Positions 9,001-12,000 of a stretch of 12,551 nt of DNA are shown here, in pieces. The first letter of the stretch is position 1. The number at the start of each line of letters is the position of its first letter. This stretch comes from Candidatus Micrarchaeota archaeon. GTDB lineage: Archaea; Micrarchaeota; Micrarchaeia; Anstonellales; Anstonellaceae. Made by a program: the position numbers. Location of the stretch: positions 15,589-28,139 of the forward strand of contig DUFS01000054.1 in NCBI GenBank assembly GCA_013331805.1, given 5' to 3'.

Positions 9001-12000
9001 TGGAACCCGTATTCCTCACCTTGATGTGGAACTGGCTCACGACCCTGTTTGAAGTCTCGGTCCTTTCGAATGCTGGTCCGACTTCCACCAGGGCAAGCGG
9101 GCTTGCGGACTTCCAGTATATTTCGCTTTCAGCAAGCATTGCATCGCTGGAAGTGCCGGGAAAGAATCCCAGCAGCGCTATTGCCACAAGCGCTATCACA
9201 AGAACAACCGCGAGCAGCACCAGGTATTCGGTGGCACCCTGTCCGGCTTGAGAAAAAGTCGAAACTATCGAGGCGAATCGCCGTTTATGGCGCATATGCG
9301 GCTGCCGGGATTTGAACCCGGACCTCGAGCTTGGGAAGCTCAGATACTAACCAGGTTATACTACAACCGCTTTGTAAGGAATTTCCCCCGCGTAGTTCGT
9401 TATTTCTTCATAAATATCTTTATTAGATGGGACGTATCCGCGCTTCACAAAATATTTGAACTTGACGATATTTTTGGGGTTCGAGCTCCCTACTAGCCTG
9501 AAGAATCTCAGTACTTCTTCCTGATCTTGAACCCTTATATCGTGTCCTTCTGTCGTATAGCCGCTTATCGTAAAACTTTTTGAAGGAGTGAAACCCGTCT
9601 TTTTTAGCAGGAAAACTATGCCTTTTCTGATGCTTGGAGACATTGTCTGAAATTCAATAATGGCTCGCCTGTAACCTTTTTGTTTGTAGTAAATGCCGCC
9701 ATCGGTGTCAACTAGCCCCCTGAGCGCGCCATAAACAAATTCTGTCCTTTCCAGTATCCATTTTGGCAAAGAAGCACGGTTTCTTATCTTGTTACCGGCA
9801 GTCAATCCCATGCCAGTTAAAAATTTGACTAACTCGCGCGAATAGCAGTCTAAAATTATTGTATTCTTATTGGTGTAGCTGGCAAATATCTTCGTCTCAA
9901 TTCCGAATAGTTTTCTAATTTCTCGCCTAATGTATTCCAAGTACTCCTTCTCATGAATTGCACATGTAATTGTCAGTTCATTTTTTCCGATATATCCATC
10001 ACCAAGAATTGCTCCAAACAATTCAGCAAGCTCCTCGCTTTTTTCAGGGATATCTATCTTTTTTGTCCACCTTCGTCCGCCAGTTGTTTTGCCCCCTACC
10101 TTCTGTCCCCAGTTTGACGACAATACCCCCTCCACCATTTCAGCCCTGATTTCACTGAACTTCCCTATCTGATATTTCTTGACGAGTTTCTTCGCTGTTT
10201 TGTAAGGGATGGTTGAATTTTCCTCCCCCCAGTCAATCCTCAATGTTTGGGCGCTGACTCCTGCCATTTCTGCCAAACCATCCCAAGTCAGTCCGCTTCT
10301 TTCCTTTATTTTTCTGATGAGTTCCCGTTGCAATCCCGCCTTGAATCTTAGGCGTTTGCCTGAGATGTTTTCTCCTCTCCTTCTCATTATTTTTTTACTG
10401 CAGGGAGCTATTTAAAGCTATTATTTTTCCTACCAGGCTGGACTACAGCCGCGCGTCTTTTGTTGGGGCTGCCCTATATTATAAAGTTTGCCGGCGAATC
10501 GGTTTTCCGTCTTTGGGAATTGCGCAAATGCGCAGCAAAAGGTGGTTTTGGATGGCTGAGAAAAATCCGGTCTGGGCAGCGGTCTTGAACGTCATCCCAG
10601 GGCTTGGAACCTGGCTGGTCTGCAAAAACGGGAGCAAGGGCATCAAGCTTTTCGGGATAGCGATCGTCCTCTGGATAGTTACGATGATTTCGTTTGGTCT
10701 TCTCGGCATCGTGTATTTCGCATACTGGCTCGTGGTCATTTACGATGGCTACATGGAGGCGCAGGGCAAGCCGCTTATCAAGATCTGAAATAATGCCCCA
10801 GTCAAACCGAACCGATTAAATTGCTGCGGCTGGAATATCCTACAATGGGCATTCCTGTCAAGGCTATTTTCGCCTTCAACGCAAACATAGACCACCTCAA
10901 ATCGGCAAACGAGGAGGACATTGCTAAAATCGGGAAGTATTCCCCCCAGATAGCCAGCCAGCTTTCAGAATGCTTTTCCTGGGGAATGCAAAAGGAAATA
11001 GCAATCGACCAACATGGGTGCGAATTCTTCCTCTCAAGCTTCAGGTTTGACTCCAAGATGGTGGGCGGGCAGGCTGGGAACGCAGCCGAGCAGGCATCGG
11101 CGCTTGGGGTGGAATCCTTTCTCCACTCGAATTTCGCAAATCCCGACCTGTTGCAGCTTTTTTCGCGCCAGGAAAAAATCCTGGTTGCAGACGAGAACGG
11201 ATTCTTCCCAGCGGCATCTGCAAAAAACGAATCAAAAAGCGCGCACCATTTTGTGTTTGAGAACACTGAAAGCCACACAAGATTCATCGCATCTTACGAT
11301 CCTTTCCCGCTTCACCCGGAGGACAACTTCTGCAGGCATATTGAAAAGGAGCTTCCCCAAACCAACAAAGCGTTCATTGGCGGCCTGCACCTGGTGAAGA
11401 CTCCTGACAGGATGCGCAAGTTCCTTTCCGAAATGAAAAAGTGGAAGGAACTCAATCCGAAGCTCCAAATGTTCCTTGAAATGGGCGAGTTCCAGTCCCG
11501 CGATGTCCTCAAGGCCGTGCAGGATGAGGTATTCCCATTTGTGGACATGGTGGGGCTGAATGAAGCCGAGCTTGGCTCATTAGGCTATGAGCTTGAAGAG
11601 CTAGCCGAACACGCTGCCTCCGTGCTTTTCCACACTGCAGAGGAAAGCAGGGTAATCCCAGAAAGCAAGACAAATGCAGCAGCGCTTGAGTTTGCGAGAA
11701 GGTGCGCATCATTCTTCGCCGAAAATGGCAGGAGGGCCACACAGGATGATATTCGGGGCTACGATGCCAAGTTCATCCCCTCGCCGGCAAGAATAGTGGG
11801 CTTGGGCGACACTTTTTCCTGTGCCTACTTCATGTCTATCTGACCTTGCCGGAAAGGTAGGCAGCGGCAAGAACCCACGCCTCGAACGCGAACACCGTCA
11901 CCGTCTCAAAAAAGGGCGCGAACTGCCTGGAAATTTCTGCAAAAAGGAAAGCCGCAGACAGCAGCACTTGCAATGCTCCGAGCGCAAACAGCAGGTTTGC

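Follow-up and report, generated by a model that had tools for sequence, protein, structure and literature searches.

A native tRNA-Gly(CCC) gene in this archaeal chromosome was probably invaded after nucleotide (nt) 25 by a free-standing LAGLIDADG homing-endonuclease cassette, and the gene was in all likelihood restored by replacement, without splicing. We base this reading on sequence comparison of the window (the whole 12,551-nt stretch of DNA analysed here) with congeners and with relatives of the cassette. The cassette would consist of its own TATA-like promoter, an endonuclease open reading frame (ORF) and a variant tRNA-Gly(CCC) fused to the end of that ORF. Upstream, the promoter of the native gene and its nt 1-25 would be left as a non-functional stub.

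Layout of the locus

The minus-strand order of stub, leader, LAGLIDADG ORF and complete tRNA-Gly(CCC), as given in the initial annotation, is reproduced by the sequence and by tRNA and ORF calls (Table 1). The tttataatata box upstream of the stub lies at about -33 to -26 relative to stub nt 1, a distance that, by archaeal promoter spacing, suggests that it is the native promoter. A block around this box, gcaaactttataa, is common to the window and to the orthologous empty site of the congener G028. The 25-nt stub, GCGGCTGTAGTCCAGCCTGGTAGGA, ends where the D stem's 3' strand is complete, and the ATG of the ORF follows 40 nt further on. Right behind the stub is a left-end motif, aaaataat/aaataaat, that is common to three other loci of the family (L002, L027 and L030), and similar A/T-rich boxes occur behind stubs in the Gln, Ser and Gly clades of the endonuclease. 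The leader has a second TATA-like box, tttaaata (10416-10409), at -29 to -22 from the ATG, which would be the placement for a leaderless mRNA.

The ORF has its own start codon and is not fused to a host protein. At its other end it runs into the tRNA gene: nt 1-15 of the tRNA double as the last four codons and the stop, with the TAA at tRNA nt 13-15. The complete tRNA scores 59.2 bits with Infernal (cut-off 29), and ARAGORN agrees. ORF and tRNA may be co-transcribed, with RNase P releasing the tRNA; as the stop codon is inside the tRNA, one transcript can give a complete mRNA or a tRNA, not both. The suggestion that the cassette is read from the tRNA promoter holds to the extent that read-through is possible, but the cassette has its own TATA-like box and therefore does not necessarily depend on that promoter.

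Table 1. Features of the tRNA-Gly(CCC) locus and of the cassette, in window coordinates.
Feature	Position	Strand	Basis
TATA-like box of the putative native tRNA-Gly(CCC) promoter	10475-10485	-	tttataatata, sequence
Stub, first 25 nt of native tRNA-Gly(CCC)	10428-10452	-	Identity to congeners
Cassette leader, 40 nt, A/T-rich	10388-10427	-	Sequence
LAGLIDADG homing-endonuclease gene, free-standing, 343 aa	9356-10387	-	Pfam PF14528
Complete tRNA-Gly(CCC)	9297-9370	-	ARAGORN and Infernal
Minimal foreign segment, from the left end of the cassette up to tRNA nt 48	9323-10427	-	Native genes of congeners and empty site of G028

Origin of the two tRNA parts

The stub had been taken for a 5' fragment of the native gene, and this identification stands: all 25 of its nucleotides are identical to nt 1-25 of tRNA-Gly(CCC) in nine congeners. 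The exact 25-mer occurs in the examined locus of 9 of the 22 congeners, each time in that position of the gene, and within its own genome the stub is single-copy even when up to four mismatches are permitted. The genes upstream of it are the same as those at the empty site of G028, so that the stub sits in the orthologous, promoter-bearing position. This conserved site is thus polymorphic for presence and absence, with the orthologous site of G028 empty and the native gene present in nine congeners. We also confirmed that all positions (7/7) of the stub's acceptor strand pair with CAGCCGC, the 3' strand, with which the 5' acceptor strand of the complete gene itself forms one G-U pair. No 3' remnant of the native gene was found behind the cassette tRNA in the window.

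Between the cassette tRNA and the native gene there are eight differences; the 25 nt that correspond to the stub contain four substitutions and a 1-nt indel. The changes include a compensated D-stem pair (C12-G23 to A12-U23) and an altered tertiary pair 15-48 (G15/C48 to A15/U48). Differences extend to nt 46 and 48, which co-vary with nt 13 and 15. The compensated 12-23 and 15-48 pairs indicate that at least nt 1-48 came with the cassette as a coherent tRNA. The earlier proposal of a homing cassette that carries a replacement is therefore supported as to the carried tRNA, but the incoming piece exceeds the 5' half that it assumed. The right border of the foreign segment lies at some point between nt 49 and the 3' end, a part that is identical in both alleles.

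The D stem of the cassette tRNA is weak, with two A-U and two G-U pairs. Minimum free energy folds of the cassette tRNA and of a constructed RNA of stub plus 3' part are both other than a cloverleaf and so do not distinguish the two. A search for the donor among the 176 genomes of the order returned no tRNA more than 89% identical. We also considered recoding of the cassette tRNA for resistance to cleavage. Mismatches between stub and cassette amount to 36% in the D stem and 17% in the acceptor; ordinary pairs of tRNAs with the same anticodon show an equal D-stem bias (34% versus 20%), and this candidate signal was dropped.

The endonuclease

The ORF matches Pfam LAGLIDADG_3 (PF14528) in two stretches, at 45.9 bits against a cut-off of 22.5. 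Its 343-aa product begins with an N-terminal helical (HTH-like) domain, followed by two LAGLIDADG domains. Across 51 aligned relatives G129-D130-G131 and D227-T228-D229-G230 are invariant, with D130 and D229 as the catalytic aspartates. A sequence search of the PDB returned no match at E<=1. The AlphaFold model (mean pLDDT 92.7) predicts the two-domain, pseudo-dimeric LAGLIDADG fold, alpha-beta-beta-alpha-beta-beta-alpha. In Foldseek it matches intein endonucleases (E=1.6e-11), I-Tsp061I (TMt 0.74) and I-DmoI (TMt 0.66), and WhiA is also among the fold matches.

The gene is compositionally foreign. Its GC content is 42.2%, compared with 52.9% for the genome, which places it at the 1.7th percentile of 1032-nt windows, and its GC3 is 0.45, compared with 0.61-0.66 in neighbouring genes.

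Distribution and the family-wide design

No close homologue of the ORF was found in the rest of the genus (0 of 22 genomes at E<=1e-10). Across the order, homologues occur in 28 of 176 genomes at E<=1e-10 and in 60 of 176 at E<=1e-5, the latter count taking in intein-borne LAGLIDADG domains; the 46 of 176 reported previously falls between the two and depends on the E threshold. At least 488 relatives are encoded on metagenome contigs, and those on genome contigs were collected with a narrower alignment, A3.

The association of the ORF with an adjoining tRNA in relatives, first noted at a smaller number of loci, extends to this larger set. A co-oriented tRNA starts between -80 and +150 nt from the ORF stop at 72 of the 80 metagenome loci and at 35 of the 46 loci from genomes; the background is 0.025 for a window of that size. 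Where there is an adjoining tRNA, the ORF overlaps it at 40 of the 72 metagenome loci and 23 of the 35 genome loci. The design of ORF plus tRNA spans DPANN archaea and several bacterial phyla. Protein clades track the isotype of the tRNA, with 17 rows for Gly, 18 for Gln and 41 for Ser and six changes for seven states, and the Gly clade covers Micrarchaeota as well as Pace-, Woese- and Nanoarchaeota.

Upstream matches resembling a stub (at least 11/16 ungapped to the 5' end of the tRNA) were detected at 16 of 65 loci, compared with 2.8% per locus in shuffles. The last nucleotide of these stubs falls in the D loop or in the D stem's 3' strand, and the ATG follows 33-52 nt later. The other 49 of 65 loci are without a detectable stub, and persistence of the cassette therefore does not require one. 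In three relatives (L061, L062 and L113) the complete cassette tRNA is followed by a separate 3' remnant of the former gene; a strict scan recovered two of these among 71 loci (L062 and L113), and that of L061 was recognised by eye. A D-arm-like element between the TATA box and the ATG was considered as a candidate 'operator'; it is significantly stub-like at 3 of 16 Gly-clade loci but not in the window. In the closest copy (genome G006, 63% identity) the ORF is broken and the stub decayed, and the tRNA is intact (65.2 bits). As expected, this state would fit a late stage in the life cycle of a homing gene.

Population data

Public DNA data were said to contain contigs that run unbroken across the locus. 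We find the same: three data sets other than the source (X5, X6 and X8) cross both junctions with 0-1 differences, a fourth, X7, being the same as X6 and apparently one data set deposited twice. Contigs that seemed to join the two sides directly had been tentatively taken for a cassette-free allele, which we do not see in runs X5-X8. The extra contig pieces in these runs are the 3' part of another organism's tRNA-Gly, with four differences over 9299-9345, and this tRNA continues into an unlike 5' half.

Alternative explanations

Does the ORF instead ride in a giant bulge-helix-bulge (BHB) intron at tRNA position 25/26, so that the mature tRNA would be formed from the stub and the downstream nt 26-73? 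The initial annotation offered this as its first alternative, with an intron of about 1.06-1.08 kb, and it has points in its favour. Stub and downstream 3' part together make a perfect tRNA of the native type, non-canonical tRNA introns are frequent in the lineage (in the D loop, at position 26/27 and in the T loop), and the splicing endonuclease of Micrarchaeota is reported to be broad in specificity. However, with both bulge arrangements scanned, the junctions have no strict hBHBh' motif, compared with a mean of 1.2 in random window pairs, and two relaxed matches lie at sites unable to give a tRNA. The same scan recovers all four canonical introns of congeners (4/4) and the ORF-bearing 16S rRNA intron of the same genome, so that the lack of a motif at the junctions disfavours an intron. 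In addition, the putative intron would close with a complete, compensated 5' half that is part of the full tRNA scored above and for which an intron has no use, and in the relative L061 the acceptor strand of the stub is mismatched to the downstream 3' strand. We regard splicing at this site as very improbable. Neither group I nor group II intron models gave a match at E<=10 in 9100-10700. Among other RNA families in that interval the tRNA alone passes, with a Twister-P5-like match at 16.8 bits far under its cut-off. A split tRNA of the Nanoarchaeum type was also considered and is disfavoured, since a complete tRNA gene is present and no BHB-forming complement was found at the stub.

Two further explanations accept an insertion or a rearrangement and give the LAGLIDADG protein another role. 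Genes for tRNAs are classic integration sites, and the ORF could be a mere passenger of a plasmid- or integrase-type element. A 5' fragment, an insertion and a variant tRNA have been interpreted as integration of an element at the tRNA-Thr locus of Caldiarchaeum, according to the available portion of that report (PMC3293823). Yet the foreign segment here measures only about 1.1 kb, with the LAGLIDADG gene as its sole ORF, and four substitutions and a 1-nt indel within 25 nt set the repeats apart from identical, att-like copies. Host genes in syntenic order lie on either side, a search around the segment found no flanking repeats of a larger element, and across 127 loci the LAGLIDADG ORF is the constant partner of the tRNA. 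Such an element is thus a highly unlikely source of the arrangement. Alternatively, the LAGLIDADG protein could have been domesticated, for example as a DNA-binding regulator like WhiA that acts on the neighbouring tRNA gene, with the stub as a relic of an old rearrangement. This would be in keeping with the fold match to WhiA, the N-terminal HTH-like domain, the intact ORF at most loci and the D-arm-like element that some Gly-clade relatives have between TATA box and ATG. We nevertheless consider domestication improbable, given the invariance of both catalytic aspartates in 51 sequences, the patchy spread (0/22 congeners and 28/176 genomes of the order), the foreign composition, a Gly clade that crosses phyla and the decayed copy in G006.

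Proposed mechanism and implications

Under the preferred explanation, invasion of the tRNA gene by a homing cassette that replaces what it interrupts, the enzyme would cleave tRNA-Gly(CCC) genes that lack the cassette, within the D arm or close to it. A cassette-bearing copy would then be the template for repair of the break, with the stub serving as the left homology arm and the 3' part of the tRNA as the right arm. Repair would copy the promoter, the ORF and the front of the variant tRNA into the target, and the stub would be regenerated in the process. The variant D arm, which has four substitutions and an insertion of 1 nt within nt 12-23, may render the cassette's own tRNA gene uncuttable.

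Besides the intron and the intein, the arrangement may be a third solution by which a homing endonuclease gene can reside inside an essential gene while its host survives. It points to enzyme clades specialised on single tRNA isotypes and gives orphan tRNA fragments a concrete origin. It could also help to answer a long-standing question about archaea, namely why their tRNA introns lie at unusual positions and some of their tRNA genes are disrupted. The stubs themselves show which tRNA genes these natural nucleases target, and their specificity should therefore be easy to test.

More tentatively, the cassettes could be natural 'home-and-rescue' drives on tRNA genes, the stub being a portable left arm and the tRNA both the right arm and a cleavage-immune rescue copy; we see this as a possibility that is doubtful at present. 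Were it correct, homing into the corresponding tRNA gene would be open to a cassette in any genome, over the borders of phyla and even of domains. The resulting arms race could be one source of the orphan tRNA 5' fragments and fragmented tRNA genes of DPANN archaea, and also of non-canonical D-arm introns, which split the DNA target.

Comparison with known systems

Synthetic 'home-and-rescue' or 'cleave-and-rescue' drives, engineered with Cas9 in insects, direct their nuclease at an essential gene for which they bring along a substitute that resists cleavage. The cassette would share this logic, its own tRNA gene being presumably resistant. The archaeal enzymes I-Tsp061I and I-DmoI are encoded in BHB introns of rRNA genes, which are spliced out at the BHB motif. 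They have the same protein fold and likewise a structural RNA gene as target, but no BHB motif was found at the junctions here, and the gene would be repaired by a carried replacement. The same genome has an ORF-bearing BHB intron in its 16S rRNA gene.

SegB of phage T4, as described in the available portion of the report (Brok-Volchanskaya et al. 2008, PMC2330249), is similar in that the endonuclease gene lies outside any intron or intein, among tRNA genes, and is inherited along with flanking tRNA sequence. It differs in being a GIY-YIG enzyme that acts by gene conversion between homologous genomes, and that text describes no displaced fragment or duplicated part. Closer in layout is the tRNA-Thr(GGU) locus of Caldiarchaeum subterraneum, where a variant tRNA is immediately preceded by the 813-bp ORF of a 1,868-bp insertion (Sugahara et al. 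2012, PMC3293823). The 5' fragment (nt 1-27) is identical to the uninterrupted allele, and the empty site is polymorphic in the population, according to the same text. Judged by this description, the succession of 5' fragment, ORF-bearing insertion and variant tRNA resembles that in the window. The authors read the locus as a plasmid-like or transposable element with a 'DNA recombinase', and the portion of the paper available contains neither the word LAGLIDADG nor the word homing.

The nearest parallel in principle is that of the mobile endonuclease ORFs (mORFs) of fungal mitochondria, which create gene hybrids in atp6 of Allomyces macrogynus and in atp6, atp9, cox2 and nad3 of Glomus sp., as far as covered by the available text (Beaudet et al. 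2013, PMC3630166). There, as proposed here, an endonuclease ORF (LAGLIDADG or GIY-YIG in the fungi) enters a host gene, displaces part of it and supplies a foreign, divergent copy of that part, which becomes joined to the remainder; the displaced native part survives as a fragment without use that matches the gene in close relatives (PMC3630166). The same source describes mitochondrial protein-coding hosts in which the C-terminal part is replaced and the native fragment lies downstream of the ORF. The window differs in that a tRNA gene on an archaeal chromosome is the host, replacement would affect its 5' part or all of it, the native fragment lies upstream together with its putative promoter, and the end of the ORF overlaps the tRNA. 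A replacement principle described for protein-coding genes of fungal mitochondria thus appears here to act on tRNA genes in prokaryotic chromosomes.

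Structure of the locus

The locus is most readily understood as a homing-endonuclease cassette whose tRNA target has been replaced, not interrupted. The insertion lies at nt 25/26 of the resident tRNA-Gly(CCC) gene; the native promoter and a 25-nt 5' stub are retained, and a variant tRNA front has replaced at least nt 1-48. The first 15 nt of the cassette tRNA also serve as the final four codons and TAA stop of the LAGLIDADG ORF. Besides this tRNA, Infernal found no match above threshold in 9100-10700 and no match to group I or group II intron models in the same region. The window contains only one 3' half of the tRNA.

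Coordinates of the cassette and adjoining features (window positions), and of features on contigs C10 and C54 of the same genome
Feature	Position	Strand	Basis or remark
TATA-like box tttataatata	10485-10475	-	Sequence; stub begins ~25 nt further on
Stub, 25 nt, GCGGCTGTAGTCCAGCCTGGTAGGA	10452-10428	-	Sequence
A/T-rich leader, 40 nt, with tttaaata at 10416-10409	10427-10388	-	Sequence
LAGLIDADG ORF, 343 aa, ATG start	10387-9356	-	ORF calling
Complete tRNA-Gly(CCC)	9370-9297	-	Infernal, 59.2 bits (cut-off 29)
Pilin-like gene	8622-9295	-	Two overlapping frames, 8750-9295 and 8622-8918
Second, distant LAGLIDADG ORF, ~251 aa	C10:1219-1974	-	Inside 16S rRNA intron
tRNA-Gln(CUG)	C54:7154-7260	-	D-loop intron

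The pilin-like gene encodes a class III signal peptide (...QAGQ/GATEYLVLL...) and begins 2 nt past the tRNA 3' end. Contigs of other runs lack any indel at its frame break, which is therefore probably real. The gene has a host-like GC content (52.4%) and is missing at the equivalent spot in G028, a genome of the same genus, and in G006, which carries the nearest copy of the cassette. A T-run follows the native tRNA-Gly genes of congeners (loci L032, L034, L041, L042); none follows the cassette tRNA in the window (9290-9297) or in G006, and transcription may therefore continue into the pilin-like gene.

The resident gene and its variant replacement

The tRNA-Gly(CCC) genes of the 22 other genomes of the genus were located by DNA search. 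The exact stub 25-mer constitutes nt 1-25 of this gene in the fetched locus of nine of the 22, and a tenth congener (G032) differs from it once, at nt 5. The native gene, 73 nt long, is intron-less in G039, G021 and G033, has a canonical 37/38 intron in G028, G038, G034 and G032, and has a T-loop intron in G025, G027 and G037. These three intron states across species point to rapid intron turnover in one genus; the 37/38 introns measure 35-72 nt (loci L032-L052). In G028, an EF-Tu/SelB-like gene flanks the tRNA on one side, and a small membrane ORF and an ADP-dependent kinase-like gene lie on the other, just as in the window; nothing further is found between tRNA and neighbours, and the promoter block gcaaactttataa is identical. 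The stub therefore occupies the orthologous, promoter-bearing site. A search of its own genome, with up to four mismatches allowed, returned the 25-mer a single time, and no further tRNA-Gly was recognised there. That genome (1.19 Mb, 91.5% completeness) yields 22 Infernal tRNA matches, 16 of them above the cut-off, and several of its tRNAs have long or multiple introns.

The cassette tRNA departs from the native gene by seven substitutions and a one-base insertion: C5 to T, C12 to A, C13 to T, G15 to A, an extra T in the D loop, G23 to T and, in the variable loop, A46 to G and C48 to T. The D-stem pair C12-G23 is altered on both sides, to A12-U23, and G15/C48, in tRNA structure the Levitt tertiary pair, becomes A15/U48; nt 46 contacts pair 13-22. 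The linked changes are sensible only jointly, and thus at least nt 1-48 arrived as one functional unit, although its right border cannot be placed because the alleles are identical from nt 49 on. No tRNA more than 89% identical to the cassette tRNA exists among the 176 genomes of the order, so the donor is unsampled.

Intron or replacement?

The initial annotation had proposed either a ~1.06-kb intron at 25/26 or a cassette with a replacement tRNA 5' half. The variant, structurally compensated tRNA front upholds the latter. We consider it very improbable that the ORF lies inside a bulge-helix-bulge (BHB) intron: the stub would pair perfectly in the window, but a scan of stub positions 13-45 against tRNA positions 9-45, in both arrangements and with 3-nt bulges, a 4-bp central helix and flanking helices of at least 2 bp, found no strict BHB at the junctions, against 1.2 on average in random window pairs. 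Two relaxed hits fell only at positions unable to yield a tRNA. The same code recovers the canonical intron in 4/4 typical-form congener genes, one T-loop intron, and a strict BHB around the genome's own 16S rRNA intron. Moreover, an intron needs no compensated copy of the 5' part at its end, and at L061, a related locus, the acceptor strand of the stub shows no match whatever to the downstream 3' strand. The 16S rRNA intron (~663 nt), with its LAGLIDADG ORF, represents the classical arrangement, alongside the tRNA cassette in one genome.

Twenty public runs, none of them recorded as RNA, contain the stretch or part of it, and we examined contigs of the four without a possible-source flag, two of which look like one data set filed twice. 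As annotated earlier, contigs span the tRNA/ORF and stub/ORF junctions, here with 0-1 differences. No contig in the four runs joins across the cassette. The joined contigs previously read as a possible cassette-free allele were not reproduced, and the extra contigs that align at 9299-9345 are another organism's tRNA-Gly.

The encoded protein

The ORF is foreign in composition, with a GC content of 42.2% versus 52.9% for the genome (1.7th percentile among equal-length windows) and a GC3 of 0.45 versus 0.61-0.66 in adjoining genes. Pfam places LAGLIDADG_3 in two stretches of the protein (45.9 bits; cut-off 22.5) and a weak HTH_3 match close to the N-terminus; a PDB search by sequence alone gave no match. 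In an alignment of 51 relatives, G129-D130-G131 and D227-T228-D229-G230 are unchanged. The AlphaFold2 model built on this alignment (mean pLDDT 92.7) predicts a helical N-terminal domain (~residues 12-98) and two alpha/beta LAGLIDADG domains. Its best Foldseek matches are VMA intein endonuclease domains (E=1.6e-11), the archaeal intron enzyme I-Tsp061I (TM 0.74 on target), PI-SceI, I-SceI and I-DmoI, and the degenerate regulator WhiA is also among the matches. In our view the protein is an intact and probably active LAGLIDADG endonuclease, a two-domain monomer with an additional DNA-binding domain.

A tRNA-linked family

The initial observation is real and exceeds chance by far, and the earlier report that a tRNA abuts the ORF in relatives holds widely. 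A co-oriented tRNA lies directly 3' of the ORF in 17 of 29 order-level loci (ARAGORN or Infernal) and likewise, by eye, at L005. Of 488 relatives in a metagenome scan, 80 loci were kept; the start of a co-oriented tRNA falls between -80 and +150 nt relative to the ORF stop in 72 of these and in 35 of 46 named-genome loci, versus a background of 0.025 tRNA per such window elsewhere in the same loci. ORF and tRNA overlap in 40/72 and 23/35 cases, respectively, most commonly by 15 or 10 nt.

Stubs also recur. In 16/65 loci, the first 16 nt of the tRNA have an ungapped match of 11/16 or better in the upstream 100 nt, versus 2.8% per locus in shuffles. When windows were scored with a library of tRNA 5' halves, 11/66 upstream windows reached at least 26, versus 0/66 windows inside ORFs; five matches in the opposite-strand control are real divergent tRNA genes. 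Without exception, stubs stop within the D loop or the D-stem 3' strand, at ...GGTAGGA(T) in the Gly, ...GGTCAA(G) in the Gln and ...GGTT in the Ser clade, and are followed by an A/T-rich box and, 33-52 nt on, an ATG. In bacterial members, a -10-like TATAAT replaces the archaeal TATA box. Bacterial Ser-clade loci of Planctomycetia, Omnitrophota and CPR (L154, L163, L165, L167, L170, L172, L184) have the same order of stub, ORF and tRNA-Ser. At L061, L062 and L113, the T-arm and acceptor 3' part of the old gene survive as an orphan remnant 20-30 nt beyond the complete cassette tRNA; the old gene there was therefore split into two leftovers.

The family is patchily distributed, and its protein clades are isotype-specific. 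tRNA isotype cleanly divides a FastTree of 92 proteins (Gly 17 rows, Gln 18, Ser 41, Val, Ala), with six changes for seven states, the minimum, a descriptive value since relatives share labels. The Gly clade unites the window's Micrarchaeota genome with Pace-, Woese- and Nanoarchaeota; the Ser clade takes in Omnitrophota, Planctomycetia and CPR bacteria. The nearest copy (G006, 63% identity) is indeed broken, as first noted: its ORF is frameshifted and stop-broken and its stub lacks the acceptor part, yet its tRNA is intact (65.2 bits).

The D-loop intron (~25-28 nt) of the genome's tRNA-Gln(CUG) directly follows GGTCAA, the end position of Gln-clade stubs, and several cassette-linked tRNA-Gln genes (L004, L005, L006, L076, L084) are interrupted by an intron at this place or close to it. 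Gly-clade loci L061, L064 and L146 carry a second D-arm-like element between cassette TATA box and ATG, closer to the stub than to the cassette tRNA (scores 12-18 versus a null 95th percentile of 9); in the window, similarity of this element to the stub is not significant. The element in these three loci may be an autoregulatory binding site or a relic of nested insertion. L065, also in the Gly clade, is a variant arrangement with a complete tRNA-Gly(CCC) 88 nt upstream of the ORF and none downstream.

Possible mechanism and known systems

The enzyme would cut the cassette-free gene in the D-arm region, and the donor cassette would be copied during repair, with the stub and the 3' part of the tRNA serving as homology arms that are short and universally conserved. 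Occupation of the same tRNA gene by one clade across phyla with unrelated flanks would follow from such arms. A transcript spanning both ORF and tRNA may start from the cassette TATA box, whose position suits a leaderless mRNA, and perhaps from the native promoter too; RNase P would release the tRNA. The variant D arm may protect the cassette's own tRNA gene. Mismatches between stub and cassette tRNA favour the D stem (23/64) over the acceptor (19/112), but 243 ordinary same-anticodon tRNA pairs show an equal bias (34% versus 20%), so this gives no protection signature.

In full-text literature, a coverage mostly outside subscription journals, we found no description of a tRNA-linked LAGLIDADG family. 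The 39 reported archaeal group I introns were all in rRNA genes (PMC6125680), and phage T4 SegB is the known free-standing endonuclease within a tRNA gene cluster (PMC2330249). One earlier archaeal description gives the same layout as in the window: at the Caldiarchaeum tRNA-Thr locus, a 1,868-bp insertion bearing an 813-bp ORF separates a 5' fragment from a variant tRNA (PMC3293823). That locus was interpreted as a plasmid-like integration with a recombinase, and "LAGLIDADG" and "homing" are absent from the text. The closest described principle is that of the mORFs (mobile endonuclease ORFs) of fungal mitochondria, which enter atp6, atp9, cox2 or nad3 and bring a foreign C-terminal part; the native C-terminus remains as an unexpressed fragment (PMC3630166). 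The locus in the window mirrors this arrangement, on a tRNA gene of an archaeal chromosome.
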